From assembly GCA_032249095.1 (NCBI GenBank), contig JAVVGN010000065.1:1-10428 (forward strand): a DNA stretch of 10,428 nucleotides, written 5' to 3'. Both the position numbers and the translations under genes were made by a program. Source of the DNA: Candidatus Caldarchaeales archaeon. GTDB taxonomy: Archaea > Thermoproteota > Nitrososphaeria_A > Caldarchaeales > Calditenuaceae. Positions 1-10,428 of the stretch are shown here, piece after piece (the first letter of the stretch is position 1; each line of letters starts with the position of its first letter). The notes beneath the pieces were generated by a model. That model saw nothing but the letters and a program-made list of their open reading frames with translations. It made no database searches and was not told the origin of the DNA.

Positions 1-51
1 TATAGCTTTCACTTTAGGCAATCATGGACTTTCTGGTATATGTGGAATAAA

Positions 52-111
52 TAAAATAGAAAATATATGCCGATGGGGTATAAATAGAAAATAGTATATA
101 TGCCGGTGGGG
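52..111. repeat. Imperfect tandem direct repeat of two units: TAAAATAGAAAATATATGCCGATGGGG (52-78) and TAAATAGAAAATAGTATATATGCCGGTGGGG (81-111)
   Basis: Read directly. The units differ by a 1-nt indel, a 5-nt indel (GTATA) and one A/G substitution. The repeat lies immediately 3' of the minus-strand stop codon (115-117) of the IS110-like C-terminal ORF. On the minus strand each unit reads as a GC-rich clamp followed by a T-rich tract. Confidence 0.7.
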
Positions 112-114
112 CCG

Positions 115-456
115 TCAGGCTGGAGCGGCTAGTCCGGCCTCCTGGACTTCTATCGCTAGTCTCCTGATGTCTCCGAGGATTCTTTTCGCCACTCGTAGGA
201 TTGCCTGCCAACGCTTCCTACCCCTCCGACGATAGCTCTCATATACTGCTGGATATCTACGATGCTTGTTCAGAACCATTATATTGGCCAGAAGTATCAG
301 TAGTTGGCTCCGTAATCCTCTACCTCTCCAAGGACGCCTAAACAGCTCATAGCGCCTCTCCAACCCAGTTCTAGACAATGTCTTGAAGACGATGGAGTCG
401 TGGGAGACGATGTAGGCCAGTGGAGGACCCTTAAGACCTAGCCTCTCGACGGCCAT
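115..456 (-). pseudogene. IS110-family transposase, C-terminal domain fragment (113 aa), in a different frame from the N-terminal piece
   Basis: RGLRSQLLILLANIMVLNKHRRYPAVYESYRRRGRKRWQAILRVAKRILGDIRRL matches the IS110 C-terminal consensus (lR.aLy.aA......p....fY.r...rGK....A..AvARKL..i...ml). ERLGLKGPPLAYIV resembles the helix-hairpin-helix segment L..ipGiG..tAa.l. The fragment is separated from the N-terminal piece by a TAG stop, a frame change and an AT-rich 64-nt spacer (457-520). Confidence 0.55.
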
Positions 457-520
457 ACTGTAGAGCGGTAGTTACATATAGTCTTTTCATGAATCCTATC
501 GCCAGCCTATCGGCGTAGCG

Positions 521-976
521 CTAAAGAGTCCTGCGAGTCTCTACAGCTAATGGATCGTCTATTGTGCTCCGTGTATTTTTGGCCGCCTTCTTTATCCCAG
601 CCATCTCCACCCAAAGCTCCGCCAGAGCCCTAACCTCAAGCTCCAACGGAGAAGCATAGAGTGGCTGGAACAGACCTGGAGCCTTATAGAACATCTCTCT
701 CAGAGCCTTCACGTCGTTCTCATCCGTCTTCCTAAGACCATTGTTCCTTCTCACTTCGGAGACCGCTTTCAAATCTCCAAGCCTCAGGGACACCGCCCCG
801 TCAAGCCGCGTCATGGTTGGTAGGAGCCTCCTCAGATAACTATCAGCAACCACCATCTTCGGCCTCAACTTCTCAAACATCTCTAGGAAGTCGTTGAAGA
901 CCATCACCTCCTCGCCATCCTCCGGAAGAGCATAGACCCTCCCATGTCCGAAGTCAACGAAGACCCCACTCACCAC
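521..976 (-). pseudogene. IS110-family transposase, N-terminal DEDD (RuvC-like) domain fragment, 151 aa, ending at a TAG
   Basis: GVFVDFG matches the first catalytic-Asp segment (consensus GIDVsK). GLRKTDENDVKALREMF matches the conserved KTDxxDAxxLAxL motif. ELEVRALAELWVEMAGIKKAAKN matches the helix preceding the linker (R.L.r.R..Lv......N). The start is GTG at 976, with an SD-like GGAGGT (complement of 983-988) and a TATA-like GATAAAG (complement of 999-1005) upstream. Confidence 0.6.
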
Positions 977-1412
977 CTATCAACCTCCCTCCCCAAGCCT
1001 TTATCTCATATGGTCTCGCCACCAACTGAAACCTCACCACCATCCCACTCCATACCCATCACCCGCTCGGGGAAGAGCACCCACCGACCTCCACATATAA
1101 GGAGTCTGGCTCCAACAGCCGGGCCATCCCCAACCTAGACTCACTAAGAGCCGGACATACCAGAGAAAGAGATAGTAATATGGAAGGGGTGGTCTAAGCT
1201 CAAACATCCACTAGAGAACTACTAGAACACGGAAACATACCAATACAGCTATACCTATGGGGCAACGAGGTAATATTCAGGGTAAAGGACAGACAACACT
1301 ATACGGATACCCGGGGCCAGACTAAACCCACCTTAGTTCCCATCAAACTGTATTATTGAGGTCGCTATTAATCCAATTTATGTCGGTGGATTTGTTTTCT
1401 TCCTCATATTTC

Positions 1413-1436
1413 GCTCTTAAACAATGGGTTAAGAGC
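1413..1436. repeat. Perfect 8-bp inverted repeat / hairpin GCTCTTAA-(ACAATGGG)-TTAAGAGC
   Basis: Read directly: arms at 1413-1420 and 1429-1436 with an 8-nt loop. It abuts the TATA-like box of the lhr gene and sits at the probable outer boundary of the IS110-like element. Confidence 0.8.
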
Positions 1437-1445
1437 AAAATATCC
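1436..1445 (+). promoter_or_regulatory. TATA-like box CAAAATATCC for the Lhr helicase gene (leaderless-type spacing)
   Basis: The AT-rich element ends 24 nt upstream of the GTG at 1467. A nearly identical element, CAAAAATATC, sits at the same distance from the Fap7-like gene start (8532-8541). Confidence 0.45.
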
Positions 1446-1466
1446 GTGTGGGAGGCCTCTTAGGGG

Positions 1467-4295
1467 GTGGGGGAGGGTCCCGTGGAGGCTGAGGAGCTGC
1501 TGTGCCGCCCGGTCTTGGAGGCGGTTTACGAGAAGTTCGGGGGGCTGGCCGAGACCCAGAGGGCCGCCATCCCCCACATACTCAGGGGCGAGAACGTGCT
1601 CATCAGCTCGCCGACAGGCACGGGCAAGACCGAGGCCGCCCTCCTCCCAATACTACACTCCATCCTGACGGACCCCACAGTCCGGCCCATCTCCACCCTA
1701 TACATTACTCCCCTACGGGCGCTGAACAGGGACCTCCTCGACAGGCTCGAGTGGTGGTCTAGGAGACTCGACATCTCGGTCTCCGTGAGGCATGGCGACA
1801 CCCCGCAGCGGGAGAGACGTGTCCAGGCCATAAGCCCGCCCCAGATACTCATAGCCACACCCGAGGCGCTCCAGTCTCTCCTGATAGGGCGCGTCATGAG
1901 GACAGCCCTCTCTAACCTCAGATGGGTCATCGTAGACGAGGTGCATGAGCTGGCGACGGACAAGAGGGGGGCCCAACTGGCCGTCGCGCTCCAGAGAATC
2001 AGGAAGATCACGGGTAGGAGGTTCCAGCTCCTCGGCCTCTCCGCCACGGTAGGCGACCCCGGGGAGGTCGCGCGCTTCCTAGTCGGGCCCGCGGAGGGCT
2101 TTGTGGTTGTTGAGACTAGGATGCCGAGGGGGCTGGAGGTCGAGGTTGTCTTCCCCGAGACCGAGGCGCGGGATGTGGAGGTGGCCGGGGTTCTGGGGGT
2201 CGCGCCCGACGTCGCGGCCAGGATGAGGACAATCATGCAGCTTGTCTCGGAGCACTCATCAACACTTATCTTCACCAACACGAGGCCCCTCGCCGAGGCC
2301 CTCTCCAACAGGTTCAAGGCCTGGGACGAGGCCTTCCCAGTCTCGATCCATCACGGCTCCCTCTCCCGCGACCATAGGGTGAGGGCTGAGAAGGACCTGA
2401 AGTACGGCGAGATCCAGGGCCTGATCTGCACATCGAGCCTCGAGATGGGGATCGATGTGGGCAGGATAGACTTCTGCATCCAGTACAACTCGCCGCGAGA
2501 GGTCTCCCGCCTCGTCCAGCGTGTGGGCAGGAGCGGACACAGGATAGGGGGCGTCGCTAAGGGCGTCGTAATAGTCATGGACTCGGACGACGCGCTCGAG
2601 GCCCTCGTGATAGCCCGGAGGGCTAGGAGCGGCCAGCTCGAGAAGGTGAGGGTGGTGAAGAACAGCCTAGATGTCGCCATGCACCAGATAGCCGGCCTGC
2701 TCCTAGAGTATGGCCGGATAGAGAAGTCCGAAATCATGGAGCTCCTCAGACGGACCTACAACTTCTCAGACTTCAGCGAGGCCGACCTAGAAGCCCTGCT
2801 CCAGTACATGGGTACCCTCGGCATAGCGAGGGTCTCCGACGGCATAGTCCAGAAGCCCCCAAGAACCAAACGCCTCATCGAATACTACTTCGAGAACCTC
2901 TCGATGATTCCCGAAGAGAAGCAGTACCTCGTCGTGGAGGAGGAGAGCGGCGAGCCCGTCGGGATCCTTGACGAGGCCTTCGTCGCCGAGTACGGCGAGG
3001 TTGGCACCAAATTCATACTCGGAGGTAGGCCCTGGATCATCCTCAACCTCTCCGGGACCAGGATATACGTGGCGAGGCTTAAGGAAGGTGAGGGGGCCGT
3101 ACCCTCCTGGGTCGGGGACGAGATCCCGGTCCCCCTCGAAGTGGCTATGGAGGTTGGAGAGATAAGACGGCGCTACCAGGAGCACAGAGAGGGCGGCGCC
3201 TCGGCGGAGGAGGCCATAGCGGAGCTGGCTGACGAGTACCAGACCCCGCGCCACATCATGTCTAGGGCTCTGAGAGAGGTGGAGGAACATATCTCGCTCG
3301 GGATCCCCGTACCCACGGACAGGCGAATAGTGGTTGAGGAGGCCGACGAGTATGTCGTGGTCCACGTAACCGGCGGCCTCAGGATCAACAGGACCCTGGC
3401 CAGGCTCCTCACCGTGCACCTTGCGGAGAAGGTCGGGGCCCCGGTCTCGGCCCAGTCAGACCCCTACAGAATAGTTCTGAAGAGCAAGACCCTCTCGGCA
3501 GACAACATCCTGCAGGCACTCGGAGAGATCCTCAGTGAGAAGCTTCTGAGGAGGGCCGTGGAGACTTCGGGCGTCTTCAGGAGGAGGCTGGTCCACGTGG
3601 CTAGGAAGATGGGCGTGGTGGGGAAGGAGGTGAGTCTCCTAGACGTTAGCGCCCAGATGCTCGTCGAGTCCCTAAAGGGGACCCCTGTCTACGAGGAGGC
3701 CCTCAGATTCACGGTCTTCACCGACTATGATTGGGAGGGGGCCAAGTGGCTTATAGGCGAGGTGCAGGCGGGCAGGATCGAGACTGCCAAGTGCACGCTC
3801 GGAAGCCCCAGCCCCCTCGCCTCGCTCACCATCAGCAGATACCAGCACGAATACGAGGCCTACACACCCGAGAGGATCCACAGACTGGTCGTCAACGCCG
3901 TGAGGGCGAGGATAAACAGCGAGCTCGTCGTCCTAGCGTGCGTAGACTGCAGAAAATATGTCGAGACGGCTGAGGTCGGGGGCGTGGAGGGCAGGCCTTC
4001 CTGCCCCCTATGCGGGTCCCAAAGAATAGGCGTCGTGAGGACCGCCGGGAGGGAGGATGTCGAGAACGTTCTCCGCGGCAGGACCACCGAGTCTAGGAGG
4101 CTCTGGAGGGAGGCGGAGCGCACCTCCCCCCTTGTCGAGAAGTACGGCAAGGCGGCGGTGTTTGTCCTCTCGGCGAGAGGTATGAGTGTTAAGGACGCGG
4201 AGCAGCTTCTGAGCCGGGAGCCGAGGATCTCTCCCAGGCTGATCGAGGAGATAATCGAGCACGAGAAGAAGGCCCTGCTGAGGGAGTTCAGCTAG
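1467..4295 (+). CDS. lhr: Lhr-type (large helicase-related) ATP-dependent DEAD/DEAH-box SF2 helicase, 942 aa, with a C-terminal Cys4 zinc ribbon
   Basis: Motif I SPTGTGKT (1608-1631), Ia ITPLRAL, II DEVH (1935-1946), III SAT, then IFTNTR, HHGSLS, TSSLEMGIDVG and QRVGRSGH (motif VI). A long winged-helix/DEAD-associated region follows, as in Lhr-core. CxxC...CxxC lies at 3939-4013 (CVDC...CPLC). Size and domain order fit archaeal Lhr. Confidence 0.9.
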   Translation: MGEGPVEAEELLCRPVLEAVYEKFGGLAETQRAAIPHILRGENVLISSPTGTGKTEAALLPILHSILTDPTVRPISTLYITPLRALNRDLLDRLEWWSRRLDISVSVRHGDTPQRERRVQAISPPQILIATPEALQSLLIGRVMRTALSNLRWVIVDEVHELATDKRGAQLAVALQRIRKITGRRFQLLGLSATVGDPGEVARFLVGPAEGFVVVETRMPRGLEVEVVFPETEARDVEVAGVLGVAPDVAARMRTIMQLVSEHSSTLIFTNTRPLAEALSNRFKAWDEAFPVSIHHGSLSRDHRVRAEKDLKYGEIQGLICTSSLEMGIDVGRIDFCIQYNSPREVSRLVQRVGRSGHRIGGVAKGVVIVMDSDDALEALVIARRARSGQLEKVRVVKNSLDVAMHQIAGLLLEYGRIEKSEIMELLRRTYNFSDFSEADLEALLQYMGTLGIARVSDGIVQKPPRTKRLIEYYFENLSMIPEEKQYLVVEEESGEPVGILDEAFVAEYGEVGTKFILGGRPWIILNLSGTRIYVARLKEGEGAVPSWVGDEIPVPLEVAMEVGEIRRRYQEHREGGASAEEAIAELADEYQTPRHIMSRALREVEEHISLGIPVPTDRRIVVEEADEYVVVHVTGGLRINRTLARLLTVHLAEKVGAPVSAQSDPYRIVLKSKTLSADNILQALGEILSEKLLRRAVETSGVFRRRLVHVARKMGVVGKEVSLLDVSAQMLVESLKGTPVYEEALRFTVFTDYDWEGAKWLIGEVQAGRIETAKCTLGSPSPLASLTISRYQHEYEAYTPERIHRLVVNAVRARINSELVVLACVDCRKYVETAEVGGVEGRPSCPLCGSQRIGVVRTAGREDVENVLRGRTTESRRLWREAERTSPLVEKYGKAAVFVLSARGMSVKDAEQLLSREPRISPRLIEEIIEHEKKALLREFS

Positions 4296-4914
4296 TCCTC
4301 TCCAGCCCCTCTCCACCCTCCTCGGCCTGATCCTCGGCGGCCTGTTCGGGTGGTGCCCCACCGCTCCCCGGGGCCAGGGAGGCGAAGGCCTTCAGGAGCT
4401 CCTGTTTGTCAACCTCGACGAAGGTCCTCCAGCCAACGCTCAGGACACCGTCCTCGCTCCTCAAGAGGTAACCTCTCCTCGCCAGCCTCTCGAGAGTCGC
4501 CTCAACCCTCCACCTAGGATACTTCGACTCGAGGAGCTCGACAACCTCCTTCTCCGGAGAGCTGCCATTCCTGGAAAGCAGGTAGGCGAGTGTCGCCGAT
4601 AGTATGGCCAGCTCGTCTAGGCTGTATCCGAGCGTGGGTATGTCGGAGAGTGTGAGTGGGTCGGCGAGCACTATGTAGTACCTCGCCTTGTCGTAGTCGT
4701 TGGGCTCCGCATCGGGGTCTGGGACGACCTTCAGCCTAAGCCCTATCTGCCTGAGCCTCGAGTCGAGGGCGCTCATCACCTTAGGGAAGCTCTTCCCAAG
4801 CTTCCTCCTCAGCTCCCAGCCCCTGACGCCCGGGAGCCTGTGTCCTGAGGCCAGGATCATGGCCGCCGCCTGGGCCAGCCTTTTCTCCAGCTTACCAACC
4901 TCCTCCCCGCTCAA
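4288..4914 (-). CDS. Kite-like tandem winged-helix protein (Nse3/MAGE-like by eye; ScpB-like is the alternative), 208 aa, with an acidic C-terminal tail; third gene of the SMC-like operon
   Basis: The segments [22 protein letters not shown] ... [13 protein letters not shown] ... [27 protein letters not shown] ... [10 protein letters not shown] ... [17 protein letters not shown] follow the order and spacing of the two winged-helix halves of the MAGE homology domain, recalled from human NSMCE3/MAGE-G1. The TTG start at 4914 overlaps the upstream stop (TTGA). An alternative ATG lies 19 codons downstream. Confidence 0.5.
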   Translation of the reverse strand: [208 protein letters not shown]

Positions 4915-5660
4915 GCCGCCTCACCGCCCCTCCCGAGCGACACGACCAGCGAGGTCGTCCTCGGCTCATCCGACACCACGCCAGCCGCCCTGATCCATAT
5001 CTCGCGTCTCAGAGTATCAACCCTCACCTCAACCTCTCCCCTAGATATGAGGTAGCTGAGGAGGTAGGCCCTTCTCGCCCTCTCTCCCACACCCTTGGCG
5101 CCTATAAACTCCCAGTAATTTGTCCAGCCCCTCCTCGAGGAGAGCTCTGCGAGAAGCTCCTCAAGATCCGCGCTTATCTGTTTCTCGATCGCCTCGTAGG
5201 AGGGTTGCTGTGCGGATCCCACCGCCTCGCCCCAGAACTCGGCCAGCCCCCTCGCGGGTTTGGAGAGGAAGTGCTCGTAGCCCCGCATGAGAAGCTCCAC
5301 CGAGATCTGCTCGATCCTCGCAATAGGTCTCCAAGCCTGCAGGAAGGCTGAGACCAGGTCCCTGGGATCTGCAGAGAGGATCTTGGAGTAGACAAGGTTG
5401 GCGTCGATGAAGAGGGATGAGGCGCGGTCCCTTATCCATCTCTGCTGGAGCCCCAGGACCACCGTAACCCTGTAAAGCGTCTCAGCGTCAAGAACGACTA
5501 TCTCCGAGTCCCTCTCCCTCTCGATTATCTCCCTCAGCCTCTGGAGGAGCGAGGAGACGTCGACGCTGAAGGGGTCTAGCCTCCTCCCCTCTATCTCGCC
5601 CAGTATCGACATCATCCGGATGAGCTCCTCCCTGAAGACCCTGACCTTCCCGCTACTCAC
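4911..5660 (-). CDS. Kleisin-like protein (ScpA/Nse4-like), 249 aa; second gene of the SMC-like operon
   Basis: The N-terminal segment RLDPFSVDVSSLLQRLREII...VVLDAETLYRVTVVLGLQQRWIRDRAS fits the ScpA N-terminal helical pattern (idi.di.i..i..qYl.yl...l..a.e.l.maa.L...Ks). The C-terminal WTNYWEFIGAKGVGERARRAYLLSYLISRGEVEVRVD...REIWIR fits the kleisin C-terminal winged helix (f..l...r...v.tFLalLEL.k.g.v...q...geI.i). Its size and its position between the SMC-like and kite-like genes also fit. The GTG start at 5660 overlaps the SMC stop (GTGA). An alternative ATG lies 15 codons downstream. Confidence 0.6.
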   Translation of the reverse strand: MSSGKVRVFREELIRMMSILGEIEGRRLDPFSVDVSSLLQRLREIIERERDSEIVVLDAETLYRVTVVLGLQQRWIRDRASSLFIDANLVYSKILSADPRDLVSAFLQAWRPIARIEQISVELLMRGYEHFLSKPARGLAEFWGEAVGSAQQPSYEAIEKQISADLEELLAELSSRRGWTNYWEFIGAKGVGERARRAYLLSYLISRGEVEVRVDTLRREIWIRAAGVVSDEPRTTSLVVSLGRGGEAA

Positions 5661-7396
5661 GTCGCATCACTCATGGAGGTGACGAAGGACGACCCCCCCA
5701 CATTCTGAGTAATAATGAGGTTCACGCCGTCCGTCACAGGTATCCTCCCCGGCGTTATGAATAAGAACTGGACCGTCGGGTTGGCCTTAGCCATCTCCAC
5801 AAGTATCCTGGTCACCATCTCCCTGTTGAGTGGGTCGAGATGGACATCGAACTCGTCGACGGCCCTAATGGGCGACTTGACGTAGCTCTGGAGGGCGAGT
5901 AGGAAGGCGAGGGTCGAAACAACCCTCTCGCCGCCGCTGTGGGTCCTCGCGTCAACGAGGGTCGGCTCCATCCCCCTGAATCCCGCGAAGAGCTCCAGCC
6001 TGGCCGTAGGCGGATCGTCGAGCCCCCTGATCCTGATCATGCCCCGCCCCCCTACAGCCTCAAGAAGCCTCTGATAGACCGGGTTAATGTTCTCTAGGAT
6101 CTCCTCAAGCTTCTCCCTCCAGACCTGCCTCCTCCGCTCCACCTCCTCCAGAGCCCTCCTCACGTTCTCCTCTAGCTGCCTCGCCCTCGCCTCGACTTCC
6201 TTGAACCGCGAGTCGGCTAGGAAGAACATCGCCTCCGCATCGGGCGTCACCTTTCCTAGCGAGGCTATATTCAGGGTCACCATCTTCAGCTCCTCAAGGA
6301 TGTCGGAGGGCTCCCTAGTGGTCGGGACCTCCCCACCCCGCTGCCTCGCGGCCTCCCTCCTCTCCTCCAGCTCCCTCGAGAGGGACTCTATCTCCGACTG
6401 CGCCTCGGTTATCTCCCTCGACAGCTCTCCGATCCTGTAGCGCCTAATCCCCTCCTCGACCGAGACACTCACAAGCGAGTCTACGAGCTCCAGCACCTCC
6501 TCCGGGCTCCCGCCCCCATAGAGCCTTTCCCGAATCCCTCCCCTGAGGGCCCCCGCCTCCCGGCCAAGCCTCTCAGCCTCCTGCTCCAGGCCCTCCCTCT
6601 CCCTCAGGAGCCTCTCAAGAATACTCCTCTTCCTCTCGAGGCTCCTCAGGACTTGGTTGGCGAGGCTCCATGCATATTCCAGCTCGAGGCTGTTCTTCCG
6701 CTCCTCGAGGCTCCGGAGCTGCTGAAGCTTCTGGAGCTCCCTCCTCCAGTATTCGACCGCCTCCCCAGCCTCCGCCAGCAGCCTCTTGACAGAGGCCTCC
6801 TCAGACCTCAGGCTGTTGAGCCGCGCCTCTGCGTCCATAATCCTCTCCCTTAGGCTCGCGATCCCCACGGCGTCCTCCATGGCCCTGAGCTTCTCCACGT
6901 CATCCCTGGCCGCGAAGTTCTCGATCATGTTCTGGTGCATTATGATGAGGGCGTTGTTCGGGTTTATTCCGAGCCCCCGGAGAAGCTCCTCAAGCTCCGC
7001 CTTGGGGGTGAACCTATTGTTAACATAGTGCCAGTACTCCCCGTTCTTCTTGATGTAGCGCGTGATGGCGATCTCGTCGGACTTGATGTGCCTAAACGGC
7101 CTCTCACCGTTGACCGGCGAATTGTCAAGAATCACGGTGAGCCTCGCCGCCTCCTTACCCCTCCTGATCAGGTCGCTGAGCCTCGCCCCCCTCTCGGTGT
7201 AGGTCTGGCCAAGGGCCACCGCGAGGCCGAGGAGGATCGAGGATTTCCCGGAACCGTTGGGGCCCGTAATAACGTTGAGTCCCGGCTCGAGCCTAATCCT
7301 AGAGTACTCGTGGGACATGAAGTTTTCAAGTATGATCTCGCGTACGAAGGTCGGCCTTACACTCGTCTCAGCCTCGCCAAGCCGCGCCCTTGCCAA
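5657..7396 (-). CDS. Short hinge-less SMC-family ATPase with Smc5/6-like head motifs (archaea-specific SMC-related protein, possibly ClsN/coalescin- or Sph-like), 579 aa
   Basis: N-terminal head: FVREIILENFMSHEYSRIRLEPGLNVITGPNGSGKSSILLGLAVALG, with Walker A at 7238-7264. Q-loop: IIMHQNMIENF. About 130 aa of heptad-rich coiled coil lies on each side of a short apex (RLYGGGSPEE, ~6497-6526). Signature motif SGGE at 5927-5938. Walker B/D-loop VDEFDVHLD, with DEFD at 5846-5857. The H-loop position reads QFLFITPG. TTG at 7396 is the only possible start upstream of the conserved NFMSH strand. Confidence 0.85.
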   Translation of the reverse strand: MARARLGEAETSVRPTFVREIILENFMSHEYSRIRLEPGLNVITGPNGSGKSSILLGLAVALGQTYTERGARLSDLIRRGKEAARLTVILDNSPVNGERPFRHIKSDEIAITRYIKKNGEYWHYVNNRFTPKAELEELLRGLGINPNNALIIMHQNMIENFAARDDVEKLRAMEDAVGIASLRERIMDAEARLNSLRSEEASVKRLLAEAGEAVEYWRRELQKLQQLRSLEERKNSLELEYAWSLANQVLRSLERKRSILERLLREREGLEQEAERLGREAGALRGGIRERLYGGGSPEEVLELVDSLVSVSVEEGIRRYRIGELSREITEAQSEIESLSRELEERREAARQRGGEVPTTREPSDILEELKMVTLNIASLGKVTPDAEAMFFLADSRFKEVEARARQLEENVRRALEEVERRRQVWREKLEEILENINPVYQRLLEAVGGRGMIRIRGLDDPPTARLELFAGFRGMEPTLVDARTHSGGERVVSTLAFLLALQSYVKSPIRAVDEFDVHLDPLNREMVTRILVEMAKANPTVQFLFITPGRIPVTDGVNLIITQNVGGSSFVTSMSDAT

Positions 7397-7410
7397 TAAT
7401 CCCCGAGAAA

Positions 7411-7439
7411 AATCCTCCGGAGCCTCAATAAAGAGGATT
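7411..7439 (-). promoter_or_regulatory. Candidate promoter of the SMC-like operon: TATA-like TTTATT (complement of 7427-7432) bracketed by a 7-bp inverted repeat AATCCTC / GAGGATT
   Basis: The TATA-like element lies 31-36 nt upstream of the TTG start at 7396. The inverted-repeat arms at 7411-7417 and 7433-7439 were read directly. An adjacent bulged 8-bp hairpin lies at 7437-7463. Confidence 0.4.
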
Positions 7440-7526
7440 CCCCACCCCTCCGAAAGTGGGAATACGTCGGGATGACTCTGAGGAGGTACAGTTTAGGCGG
7501 CGGGGCTCGATGGGGAGGGGAAGGGA

Positions 7527-7560
7527 TTTAAAATAGGCTGCCCTATTCTTAGAAATAGGG
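7527..7560 (+). promoter_or_regulatory. Candidate promoter/operator of the 141-aa ORF: strong TATA box TTTAAAATA (7527-7535) followed by three AATAGG(G) half-sites, including the palindrome CCCTATT-N6-AATAGGG
   Basis: The TATA box ends 34 nt upstream of the ATG at 7569. Half-sites are AAATAGG (7531-7537), CCCTATT (7541-7547, inverted) and AAATAGGG (7553-7560). The palindrome covers the expected transcription start. Confidence 0.5.
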
Positions 7561-7568
7561 GGTTCATC

Positions 7569-7994
7569 ATGGAGATTGACGTCAAGACGGCGATCGAGAG
7601 GTTCAGGCTCTTCGTGATCTATAACACTTGCCTCTCCCACATACCGAAGGGCTATTTGAAGGATCCTACGATCTTTCCCGAGAGGGATGCCGACAAGGGC
7701 GAGATCTACGTCGAGGCGGCGAGTAAGATCGAGCTTGCGAGGATCAGGGATATACGGTTCGTGAAGGCCGCCGACATCCTAGGCGTCATATACAGGTCCA
7801 AGACCGGGAACACCAACCTGAAGTGGAGGCAGATTAGGGGGAATATTGGGAGGCTCACGGGTGTAGCCTCGCCAAACTCCATAGTGAACCTGCTTGAGGC
7901 TAAAGTCTTGACCAAGGAGTATATAGAGGAGTTTCTCCGGCATAAGTCGGCCGGCGCGAAGACGGAGGCCGAGAACACAGCGGCGAAGGTCTAG
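7569..7994 (+). CDS. Hypothetical protein, 141 aa, no family recognised
   Basis: ATG start with a good TATA box upstream. Codon usage (AGG Arg, ATA Ile, GC-rich third positions) matches neighbouring genes. No recognisable motif. The 3' end overlaps the convergent archaemetzincin gene by 4 nt. Confidence 0.55.
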   Translation: MEIDVKTAIERFRLFVIYNTCLSHIPKGYLKDPTIFPERDADKGEIYVEAASKIELARIRDIRFVKAADILGVIYRSKTGNTNLKWRQIRGNIGRLTGVASPNSIVNLLEAKVLTKEYIEEFLRHKSAGAKTEAENTAAKV

Positions 7995-8509
7995 GACAGC
8001 AGTCTCGACCTACAGGCCTTGCAGGGCTCGACACCCTTTAAGTCCGTGTCCTCGACTGTGTTGCTGAAGAACATGACGCACCGCGAGTCTACGCAGTGTC
8101 GGAGCCCGAGCAGGTGGCCGACCTCGTGGACGACCTCCTTCCTCAGCCTCTCTATGTATTTTGCCACGTCGGTTGTCCGGAGCCTGTAAACGGAGACGAC
8201 GGCCGTGTCCCTGAAGGCGAGGCCGAAGCAGTAGTTATACCTGTCGAAGTAGATGTCCAGCCCGGTGATGTGTAGTTGGAGGCCGTTCCAGGAGCCGTGT
8301 CTGGAGAGGCTTTGGACCGTCTTGTAGGCGTCGGCCTGCCTCCGGGCGGGGTTGATGCTCTTAGCCGCGGGGTCCTCCTCCAGCTCCTGCTCCTCGGTCC
8401 TCAGCCCGAGCACATCCTCAACCGCCCTCGCCGCTATCCTCCTCTCAGACCTGAGGCTCCCCGTGGAGGTGATCAGGACGCTCCCGCTCCTCGACAGCGA
8501 GGGCATCAA
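7991..8509 (-). CDS. amzA: Archaemetzincin (peptidase family M54 zinc metalloprotease)
   Basis: HEVGHLLGLRHC is the HExxHxxGxxH metzincin zinc site followed by Cys. It is followed by a Cys-rich second metal site, CVDSRCVMFF...CKAC. The ~170-aa length is typical. The track start is TTG at 8509; the adjacent ATG at 8504-8506 is the more likely start. Confidence 0.85.
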   Translation of the reverse strand: MMPSLSRSGSVLITSTGSLRSERRIAARAVEDVLGLRTEEQELEEDPAAKSINPARRQADAYKTVQSLSRHGSWNGLQLHITGLDIYFDRYNYCFGLAFRDTAVVSVYRLRTTDVAKYIERLRKEVVHEVGHLLGLRHCVDSRCVMFFSNTVEDTDLKGVEPCKACRSRLLS

Positions 8510-8531
8510 CTCTAGCTAATAATCCGACAAT

Positions 8532-8541
8532 CAAAAATATC
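8532..8541. promoter_or_regulatory. Single AT-rich TATA-like element CAAAAATATC, placed symmetrically between the divergent amzA and Fap7-like starts
   Basis: The element lies 26 nt from the GTG at 8566 on the plus strand and 26 nt from the ATG at 8506 on the minus strand. The whole intergenic spacer is only ~56-59 nt. Confidence 0.4.
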
Positions 8542-8565
8542 TTCCATCACCAGACCTCTAGGGCT

Positions 8566-9150
8566 GTGGCGCCGTCGGTATACATTTTAGCAGGTACGCC
8601 GGGTGTCGGGAAGTCCACGGTCTCGCGGGCCCTTGCGTCTAGGATGGGGGTGTGGCTGCTTGAGCTGGCCGACATAGTGGGGCCTAGGGCCGTGGAGGTC
8701 TCGGCGAGCGCCCTCTCGGCGCGGGCCGGCTCGATGATAAGGAGGGGTGGGAGAGACGCCGTAATAGCCACTCATATCGTCTTCAAGCCCCGCTCAATAC
8801 CTGTCCGGGCGGCTGTGGTTCTGAGGCGGGACCCCTACAGGCTTCTCGAGGAGCTGGCTATGCGAGGCTATCCCGAGGCCAAGGTGCTGGAGAACGTCGA
8901 GGCGGAGCTCCTCGGCATCGTCTACTGGGAGGCGCTATCGAGGTTCGGCGCTGGCAGGGTGTTCCAGATAGATACAACGGGGAGGGGGGGTGAGGAGGTT
9001 GTGGAGCTTGCCTACGAGGCTCTCACTGGTGGGTGGAGGGGTGAGGACATCGACTGGATAAGTAGGCTGGAGTCTGAGGGGAGGCTTGAAGGGCTCGTGA
9101 CAAGGCTCTCGACTAGGGGAAGAGCCTTAACGCACTACAGAGAGTCGTAG
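8566..9150 (+). CDS. Fap7 / adenylate kinase isoenzyme 6 (AK6)-like P-loop NTPase, 194 aa
   Basis: N-terminal P-loop ILAGTPGVGKSTVSRALA. The motif VVLRRDPYRLLEELAMRGYPEAKVLENVEAELLGIVYWEA matches the AK6/Fap7 pattern VLR.dp..L..RL..RGY...K..eN.e.Ei......EA. The size fits archaeal Fap7. GTG start. Confidence 0.75.
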   Translation: MAPSVYILAGTPGVGKSTVSRALASRMGVWLLELADIVGPRAVEVSASALSARAGSMIRRGGRDAVIATHIVFKPRSIPVRAAVVLRRDPYRLLEELAMRGYPEAKVLENVEAELLGIVYWEALSRFGAGRVFQIDTTGRGGEEVVELAYEALTGGWRGEDIDWISRLESEGRLEGLVTRLSTRGRALTHYRES

Positions 9151-10181
9151 ACGCGCACAGCCTCCCTCGCTATTGCATCAGCCATCTCGAGGGTGCTCGC
9201 AGTCCCCCCTAGGTCATAGGTCACCGTCTTGCCCTCGGCGATAACCTTCTCGGTCGCTGCGAAGATGCTTCTCGCGTGGCGCTGGAAGCCTAGGTACTCG
9301 AGCATCCAGGCCGCTGATAGGATCGTCGCGGTGGGGTTTACCTTGTACTGGCCCTTGTATTTGGGGGCGCTTCCGTGGGCCGGCTCGAACATGGCGTAAC
9401 GGTCGCCTATGTTGGCAGAGTAGACTAGCCCTATGTTGCCTATGAGGGATGAGCAGAGCTCGGAGATCACGTCCATGAATAGGTTGGTGCTTAGGAGGAC
9501 TGTCTGGTTGAAGCGCTGGGGGTTCTTGACGAGCTGCTGCGCCATGTTATCGATGTAATACTCCTCGAGCTCTATGCCGGGAAACTCTTTCGAGACGGCC
9601 TCAACTCCGCCCCAGAACATGCTGTCCGTCAGCCTCAGAATGTTTCTCTTAGTTATCGCTATCACTTTGCCATACCCCCGCCTCACAGCCTCTATGAAGG
9701 CGACACGCGCTATCCTCTCGGAACCGGTCCTAGTGATCTTCCTTATGGCGATCGCGGTGTTCTGGTCGAGTAGGGCCTCGGCTCCTATGTAGAGCCCCTC
9801 CGTGGCCTCCCTGACGCATAGAAAGTCCACCTCGCCCAGCGGCCCGACCCTGCCCTTAAAGGTCTTGATCGGCCTCAAGTTGGCGTATAGGTCCATCCTC
9901 CTCCTAATGTTGACCGCGACGCTCCCAGGAGCGTTTGGGTCGGGGGGTGTGGTGGTTGGGGCTTTGAGGCATGCGTCGCTGTTTAGTATGGCATCCCACG
10001 TCTCGGGCGGGATGAGGTTCGGGAGGGCTGGCCTCCCCGCTGATACCCACCACTCGTATCCCGCGTCGCACCTGACTACCTCCAGATCCGGCTTGAGGGC
10101 CTCGATAACCCTCAGCGCCGCCTCAGCGAGCTCGGGGCCAGTTCCATCCCCATTAATAACGACAACCCTCTTTCTACCCAA
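9135..10181 (-). CDS. Isocitrate/isopropylmalate dehydrogenase family protein (beta-decarboxylating dehydrogenase), 348 aa
   Basis: Family motifs in order: VVVINGDGTGPE, NIRRRMDLYANLRP, REATEGLY, ITKRNIL, YYIDNMAQQLVKNP, NLFMDVISE (variant of N-x-x-GD-I/Y-x-SD), FEPAHGSAPKYKG, NPTATILSAAWMLEYLG. TTG start at 10181 with a TATA-like TAAATA about 33 nt upstream. No leuCD or other pathway genes are present in the window, so substrate specificity is not assigned. Confidence 0.85.
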   Translation of the reverse strand: MGRKRVVVINGDGTGPELAEAALRVIEALKPDLEVVRCDAGYEWWVSAGRPALPNLIPPETWDAILNSDACLKAPTTTPPDPNAPGSVAVNIRRRMDLYANLRPIKTFKGRVGPLGEVDFLCVREATEGLYIGAEALLDQNTAIAIRKITRTGSERIARVAFIEAVRRGYGKVIAITKRNILRLTDSMFWGGVEAVSKEFPGIELEEYYIDNMAQQLVKNPQRFNQTVLLSTNLFMDVISELCSSLIGNIGLVYSANIGDRYAMFEPAHGSAPKYKGQYKVNPTATILSAAWMLEYLGFQRHARSIFAATEKVIAEGKTVTYDLGGTASTLEMADAIAREAVRVYDSL

Positions 10182-10375
10182 AGGCTTCTCCCAAATAGGC
10201 GCGAACAGCCATGCTATTTAGGCTTAAACTTTTCTTGCCTTGTGGCTTAATTCCTGGACTCTTTCGCCTCTCTTCGCTACCTTTTGGCGATTCCTGTGAC
10301 GTTTTCCGGCTCTCGTCTCAGATTCCCTATATCCTTTCGCCTCAAGGCCTATTGCCATGCCTCCACTCCTCTCCC

Positions 10376-10428
10376 ATGATGAGCTACTGGAAGAGGGTCG
10401 ATGAGAGGCTAATTAAGCGTGGCATGCT
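10376..10428 (+). CDS. 5' end (17 codons, truncated by the window edge) of a transposase-like ORF, IS5/IS4-superfamily-like N-terminus
   Basis: MMSYWKRVDERLIKRGM resembles the common N-terminal W..Y(N/D)..L(V/I).RG motif of archaeal IS5-type DDE transposases. It is preceded by ~150 nt of lower-GC, CT-rich non-coding DNA containing short direct repeats. Very little sequence is available. Confidence 0.3.
   Translation, partial: MMSYWKRVDERLIKRGM

Follow-up and report, generated by a model that had tools for sequence, protein, structure and literature searches.

How might an SMC ATPase hold DNA when its arms are short and their tips carry neither a hinge domain nor a zinc hook? The question is raised by a gene for a protein of 579 amino acids (aa), P0001, in a 10,428-nucleotide (nt) stretch of DNA from a Candidatus Caldarchaeales archaeon of the Calditenuaceae (assembly GCA_032249095.1, contig JAVVGN010000065.1, positions 1 to 10,428; hereafter the window). 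We hold with high confidence that P0001 is an SMC5/6-related ATPase with the architecture described below. The overall explanation that we favour, and judge to be rather probable, is that P0001 is the ATPase subunit of a derived, miniature SMC5/6-related complex acting as a kleisin-bridged, ATP-gated head clamp, and that this form has a single origin.

A complete SMC head on short arms

The gene (5657..7396 on the minus strand, stop codon included) was delimited from the open reading frame (ORF) list and its translation, and the product was assigned from Pfam SMC_N (1.8e-32; 113 bits, cut-off 40) and from PDB matches; the plus-strand frame across 5657-7396 is riddled with stops. The TTG start is forced, with no alternative in-frame start before residue 27 and none other upstream of the first beta-strand. 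All features of the gene lie on the minus strand. The N-terminal half of the head (residues 1-179, 6860..7396), of which residues 1-13 are disordered in an AlphaFold2 model, carries the Walker A motif GPNGSGKS (residues 45-52, nt 7241-7264) and the Q-loop (Q155, within nt 6926-6940); the C-terminal half (residues 447-579, 5660..6058) carries the signature HSGGER (residues 486-491, nt 5924-5941), the Walker B/D-loop AVDEFDVHLD (residues 512-521, nt 5834-5863) and ITP at the H-loop position (residues 547-549, within nt 5747-5761). All of the ATPase motifs are present and are invariant or nearly so across 43 homologues (50-97% identity). The SMC_N match, the motif positions and the homologues bear out the first-pass annotation, made from the sequence alone, of an SMC-like ATPase with complete head halves and intact motifs. 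P0001 has zero cysteines, and therefore a CxxC zinc hook, which that annotation had likewise found missing, is impossible.

The AlphaFold2 model, built from a 43-sequence alignment (mean predicted local distance difference test score, pLDDT, 85.8; mostly >90 along the arm and 81-87 at the tip), predicts an outgoing arm that is a single continuous helix (residues 180-293, 6518..6859; 114 residues, ~17 nm), an apex that is a four-residue turn, GGGS (residues 294-297, 6506..6517), within the stretch LYGGGSPEE (residues 292-300, nt 6497-6523), and a returning arm (residues 298-446, 6059..6505) that contains helices 298-353 and 387-446. Helix, four-residue turn and helix leave no room for a globular hinge domain; as modelled, P0001 is an antiparallel coiled coil whose tip is a bare helical hairpin that lacks both hinge and zinc hook, and the early expectation that the apex would hold no hinge has survived the structure prediction it called for. 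Pfam contributes little here: the scan of P0001 matches SMC_N and not the hinge, which is a weak negative, as Pfam also misses the hinge region of the same genome's canonical SMC; a search of the whole genome with SMC_hinge gives no match and is uninformative, as the model fails on the middle region of this 1148-aa SMC too. The absence of a hinge therefore rests on the AlphaFold2 model.

The arms of P0001 (~115-130 residues, ~17 nm) are nearer to one third than to half of a canonical arm, that of Bacillus Smc being ~47-49 nm (PMC5344682, PMC5526789), so that the original description of half-length arms of ~130 aa was right about their shortness and too generous about the fraction. They compare with natural arm-length modes of 163-515 aa (PMC5344682). 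The best structural match of the model in the PDB is 5xei (2e-22), a Pyrococcus Smc construct described as a head with coiled coil and joint, followed by condensin, Smc5/6 and cohesin heads; judged by these matches, the natural protein resembles the cut-down constructs made for structural work. Engineered Mini-Smc (Buermann et al. 2017, PMC5344682) keeps ATPase activity and kleisin binding on short arms; unlike P0001, it retains the hinge.

Conservation is unevenly distributed along the arms. Among 49 family members, conservation is lowest at the apex (0.33 for residues 281-300, 0.8-0.87 in the head), and their alignment shows 0-120 extra residues at the apex or arm. The best conserved arm feature lies instead at a predicted head-proximal joint in the returning arm (nt 6239-6337), where the helix breaks at residues 354-362 and 380-386: family alignments identify at the first break the motif GGEVPTTREPSD (residues 354-365, nt 6302-6337), with the consensus G-E-R-V-x-T-x-R-x-P-S-E. 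Kleisin, kite or DNA may make contact here. The motif is recognisable even in the long hook-bearing forms described below ('GVRVETDRRP').

The nearest architectural precedent is bacterial RecN (~560 aa, about the size of P0001), which is SMC-like, lacks hinge and hook, has a short coiled coil and dimerises through three apical helices (PMC4255302). By this precedent two P0001 subunits would join at their coiled-coil tips, giving a long dimer with its heads at opposite ends, and ATP-dependent head engagement between dimers would tether or polymerise the protein along DNA. The arm of P0001, short and rigid-looking in the model, would suit such a dimer. Its tip would not: the segment that would have to pair is the least conserved and the most variable in length within the family, and the turn has only four residues, without an apical helical bundle. 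RecN, moreover, acts without kleisin or kite, both of which are near-universally encoded together with the short SMC, and the NCBIfam RecN model (TIGR00634) scores 25 bits on P0001 against a cut-off of 408. RecN is an architectural analogue of P0001, not a relative, and a RecN-like mode of action, though the main rival to the clamp proposed below, is unlikely.

A conserved family rather than a broken gene

A protein of about half the SMC length invites a trivial explanation, namely that the frame is a truncated, frameshifted or mis-assembled canonical smc, and ~980-1047-aa versions do occur in relatives. The short length is nevertheless the rule. Among 401 genomes sampled from the phylum, 201 (88 of 161 genera) have a match to the short form at E<=1e-20; among the matches listed, open frames reach at most 705 aa, with most complete ones at ~570-705 aa and internal stops very rare. 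A word-indexed search retrieves >100 clusters that are 50-100% identical and 567-606 aa long, together with a handful of shorter fragments, from genomes and metagenome contigs of Aigarchaeota, Calditenuaceae, Caldarchaeales and Nitrososphaerota, and an exhaustive search of representatives yields 54 clusters with inter-head regions of 247-380 aa and CxxC in none. These inter-head lengths cluster near 250-285 and 312-360 aa and do not fit the arm-length steps of roughly 100 aa reported for hinge SMCs (PMC5344682).

The source genome (2.03 Mb, 93% complete) also has a canonical SMC of 1148 aa elsewhere (C47:5881-9327, minus strand), followed by a 226-aa ORF (C47:5259-5939) that is a putative ScpA and by a ScpB (Pfam 5.8e-37); the ScpA candidate has no Pfam match, in contrast to the clear ScpB. 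The canonical protein has a non-coiled middle of ~170 residues that is not recognised by Pfam SMC_hinge. The uninterrupted frames of this length, which number in the hundreds across genomes and metagenome contigs, the separate canonical SMC and a head tree that groups P0001 with Smc5/6-type proteins rather than with canonical SMC (below) leave truncation hardly credible, and the first-pass annotation's own proviso, that the gene might prove to be a cut-down canonical smc, does not apply. Because hinge-bearing ~980-aa orthologues occupy the syntenic locus in Hadarchaeota as the sister group, sequence comparison indicates that the short form is a derived state and not a truncation artefact.

Membership of the ASRP family (ClsN/coalescin, Sph1/2), which is archaeal and also ~600 aa long, is equally far-fetched. 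The NCBIfam ASRP model matches P0001 weakly (54 bits, cut-off 300), and the ASRPs are a clade of their own whose members overwhelmingly carry a zinc hook, whereas P0001 has no cysteine; the comparison with ClsN and Sph that had been suggested reveals no relation. Rad50 was considered as a further assignment and rejected (NCBIfam Rad50 models 62-67 bits, cut-offs 700-1000; zero cysteines).

Affinity with Smc5/6

In a phmmer search of PDB sequences, P0001 matches yeast Smc5 best (8e-39, 137 bits), then Smc6 (1e-26) and then Pyrococcus Smc (4e-25). It reaches 178 bits with NCBIfam SMC_prok_A (TIGR02169), below the cut-off of 729 that marks canonical full-length proteins. An IQ-TREE phylogeny of head regions (75 rows, 315 columns) unites 48 short representatives and two with a hook in one clade (support 100/98), whose sister is an archaeal long form of 982 aa, P0198 (88/83); a branch with 100/98 support separates canonical SMCs, including that of this genome, from the side that holds the short clade, P0198 and eukaryotic Smc5 and Smc6. 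The signature QSGGER and the ITP motif are common to the short clade and Smc5. P0001 is thereby placed, by its head sequence, in the archaeal clade named 'SMC5/6-related' by Yoshinaga & Inagaki 2021 (PMC8665677), and the Smc5/6 affinity suspected at first sight is confirmed by both the PDB ranking and the head tree.

The H-loop position had prompted that suspicion, TP in place of TH being taken as characteristic of Smc5/6. The ITP of P0001 does align with the ITP of yeast Smc5, and ITP is found in eukaryotic Smc5 and most Smc6 representatives; a few sequences that the tree places with the canonical SMCs have it too. Judged from these sequences, TP here is typical of Smc5/6 and not exclusive to it.

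Eukaryotic Smc5 and Smc6 thus resemble P0001 in giving its best sequence matches among solved structures, in sharing QSGGER and ITP with the short clade, and in working with an Nse4-type kleisin and a MAGE/Nse1-type kite. They differ in being ~1100 aa long, in forming a hinge heterodimer and in recruiting Nse2 and Nse5/6, whereas the operon in the window has a single SMC of 579 aa; no extra conserved operon genes that might stand for Nse2 or Nse5/6-type subunits are seen, although no search was aimed at them.

Known SMC5/6-related archaeal SMCs (PMC8665677; bioRxiv 10.1101/2024.01.07.573240) share with P0001 the clade, the three-gene operon and the coexistence with a canonical SMC operon. The 2024-25 preprint of van Hooff et al. 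(bioRxiv 10.1101/2024.01.07.573240) reports that SMC/kleisin/kite operons come in pairs in TACK and Asgard archaea, with kleisins related to Nse4 and kites resembling Nse1/3, and lists in its Supplementary Table 3 the operon of Calditenuaceae HRbin02, whose SMC (P0035, 579 aa) is 77% identical to P0001. Both studies base their phylogeny on heads with the coiled coils removed, and arm length, hinge loss and hook gain go unmentioned in their searched text and supplements. In the searchable literature we found neither a short or hinge-less archaeal SMC nor a natural hinge-less partner of a kleisin described.

A second, independent pair of short SMC-like proteins, P0213 and P0217 (628-633 aa; 99/93 for the pair), falls on the canonical-SMC side of the head tree. 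From this placement, arm shortening in archaeal SMCs may have occurred more than once.

A kleisin and a kite in the same operon

Two partner proteins had been proposed for the SMC at the outset, and they are now recognisable as putative kleisin and kite. The gene for an Nse4-like kleisin (P0002, 249 aa; 4911..5660, minus strand) overlaps the SMC stop by 4 nt, and the gene for an Nse1/Nse3(MAGE)-like kite (P0003, 208 aa; 4288..4914, minus strand) overlaps the kleisin stop by 4 nt. This SMC-kleisin-kite order recurs across the phylum, mostly with 4-nt overlaps, with the kleisin syntenic in 46 of 50 loci and the kite in 44 of 50.

P0002 itself has no Pfam match; three of 15 homologues match Pfam Nse4_C (best 9.9e-7), and the top PDB match of the kleisin family profile is human EID3/NSE4B (E 0.016). 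Its AlphaFold2 model (pLDDT 62.7) has the layout of a kleisin, helical at the N-terminus, floppy in the middle and with a winged helix at the C-terminus. Foldseek with this model ranks first two non-SMC chains of Smc5/6 complexes (7tve_G and 7qcd_F, of unconfirmed subunit identity) and then the SMC-head-bound C-terminal domains of ScpA and Scc1, a ranking that is consistent rather than significant, all E-values being >1e-3. P0003 matches Pfam SMC_Nse1 (0.008) and MAGE (0.026), both below the Pfam cut-offs; in the kite family, nine of 26 members match MAGE (best 2e-5) and seven match SMC_Nse1, and the Methanosuratincola orthologue is named 'MAGE domain-containing protein' in UniRef. The kite family profile finds chance-level matches only among PDB sequences, and therefore the kite call rests on the Pfam MAGE and Nse1 matches and on the literature. 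On these profile matches and models, the operon appears to carry the Nse4-related kleisin and the Nse1/3-like kite that distinguish the SMC5/6-related clade.

Relatives with a hinge and relatives with a hook-like apex

The sister of the short clade retains what the short clade appears to have lost. The P0198 family of Hadarchaeota (963-983 aa) has arms of ~250 residues and a middle region that matches Pfam SMC_hinge in five of five members (best 4e-7) as well as Smc3 and Smc hinge structures in the PDB. It differs from P0001 in this hinge and these longer arms and agrees with it in operon order: four Hadarchaeota loci (L059:6001-10184, L060:4014-8261, L061 and L062) have the same SMC-kleisin-kite operon, with a kleisin 26% and a kite 33% identical to those of the window. 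With a hinge present in the equivalent Hadarchaeota operon, the short, hinge-less state is the derived one, and the head tree moderately supports a single origin of the mini form from an ancestor that had a hinge. The P0198 hinge region was not found among the 401 phylum genomes searched with it, a set that contains no positive control.

Three Bathyarchaeota proteins take a different course. P0177 and P0179 (Bathyarchaeota; 1047 and 1028 aa) nest within the short clade (100/98, 100/90); these two and P0191 (1016 aa, outside the tree) have heads 47-50% identical to that of the window, coiled-coil regions of 731-742 residues that are poor in Gly and Pro, and a single CxxC each (CDKC, CDKC and CERC; for example 'IRCDKCGSLL') at the midpoint of the coiled coil. 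From these sequences, a hinge-type SMC family seems to have gained a Rad50-like zinc hook on re-lengthened arms.

Lineages in which the mini form may be the only SMC

With canonical SMC scored at E<=1e-60, the two proteins are distributed differently among the sampled families. In the window's own order (f1-f4) the short form is present in 59 of 59 genomes and canonical SMC in 58. Canonical SMC is undetected in all 32 genomes of a Methanosuratincola-type family (f12), of which 29 have the short form, in all eight of one Bathyarchaeia family (f13; short form in seven), in all five of a Culexarchaeia-type family (f27; short form in five) and in all 12 of the Thermofilaceae (f28; short form in four). 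Family f5 shows the converse (short form 0/56, canonical SMC 56/56), and family f14 has neither (0/23 for each). Going by these matches, the mini form may be the sole SMC-kleisin ATPase in f12, f13, f27 and some f28 genomes. Some of the genomes of these four families that have the mini SMC and no detected canonical SMC are single-contig.

A proposed ATP-gated clamp

We propose that two copies of P0001 would engage head-to-head around two ATP; that the Nse4-like kleisin would connect one subunit's neck with the other's cap, carrying the kites on its flexible middle; and that DNA would be clamped on top of the heads once these have engaged, within the compartment formed by heads, kleisin and kites, an analogy drawn from DNA-bound Smc5/6 (PMC9191643). 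Because there would be no dimerisation element at the arm tips, the kleisin compartment would be the only closed one, which favours an ATP-gated DNA clamp or sensor, for DNA repair or surveillance, rather than a long-range ring or loop extruder. Bulk chromosome folding in this genome would presumably be left to the co-resident canonical SMC-ScpAB. Taken alone, this analogy-based mechanism is a tentative proposal.

The mini complex could instead serve defence, sensing and restricting extrachromosomal or viral DNA in the manner of Lamassu, Wadjet or Smc5/6 and not maintaining the chromosome. The PADLOC models mad3 (1.3e-29) and LmuB (1.1e-25) match P0001 along its whole length; the LmuB of short Lamassu systems is also ~600 aa, with coiled coils of ~20 nm, and was arm-shortened from longer ancestors (PMC12663957); and antiviral roles are ascribed to eukaryotic Smc5/6 (PMC10586767). 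The PADLOC scores, 102 bits for mad3 and 89 for LmuB, nevertheless fall below those for Smc5 (137) and SMC_prok_A (178), the kleisin and kite have no PADLOC matches, and the operon encodes no effector nuclease. LmuB belongs to the CxxC/SbcC branch (PMC12663957) and is accompanied by the LmuA effector and LmuC, none of which lies beside P0001. The operon, moreover, unlike patchy defence islands, belongs to the core of half the phylum, where it is syntenic and vertically conserved. We regard a defence-type system as improbable; a Lamassu- or Wadjet-like role is possible by function, not by family membership.

Several considerations weigh against a kleisin-bridged head clamp of single origin. For P0001, the head-to-head dimer, its bridging by the kleisin and the clamping of DNA are inferred; the kleisin and kite calls rest on sub-threshold or borderline profile matches and on a kleisin model with a pLDDT of 62.7; the single origin depends on one tree of 315 head columns with sister support of 88/83, in which Asgard archaea were not deliberately sampled; and the presence of the mini form without detected canonical SMC in f12, f13, f27 and some f28 genomes sits uneasily with a purely accessory, clamp-only role.

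Neighbouring genes

An Lhr-type helicase gene (942 aa; 1467-4295, plus strand) converges on the operon and overlaps the 3' end of the kite gene by 8 bp (4288-4295). Of the 24 wide loci, nine have an Lhr homologue no more than 5 kb from the operon; these nine come from several families and from Hadarchaeota, and the recurrent neighbour suggests a functional link to DNA repair. In the Hadarchaeota loci, the Lhr helicase gene is ~2-3.6 kb downstream and an AAA_18 (Fap7-like) kinase gene is upstream, echoing the neighbourhood in the window. No homologues of the other window ORFs stand beside the operon in the 24 wide loci; the neighbouring ORFs at 7569-7994 (plus), 7991-8509 (minus), 8566-9150 (plus) and 9135-10181 (minus), which include a divergent 141-aa orphan, are therefore not conserved parts of the system.

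Implications

Phylogenomic work had already brought the family and its operon to light; the mini architecture with neither hinge nor hook, its single origin from a hinge-bearing ancestor, the nested hook variant and the lineages with the mini form as sole SMC appear to be undescribed. Current models of SMC action (ring entrapment, segment capture and loop extrusion) assume two long, hinge-joined arms, and a natural, thermostable and widespread complex with ~17-nm arms and no hinge or hook makes it testable what the head/kleisin/kite module does alone. The TACK 'SMC5/6-related' proteins, which have served as the prokaryotic anchor for Smc5/6 in accounts of eukaryote origins, would be a derived, hinge-less form, and therefore the hinge-bearing Hadarchaeota relatives would be the better guide to the ancestor. 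To judge from the nested CxxC variant, a single SMC family may exchange one apex module for another. It is plausible, though we put it forward with some reserve, that the prokaryotic SMC-kleisin-kite clade nearest to Smc5/6 works without an arm-tip dimerisation element, serves as the sole SMC in some lineages, and has swapped its apex among hinge, nothing and CxxC hook; if true, such swapping would cross the textbook divide between hinge SMCs and hook SMCs.

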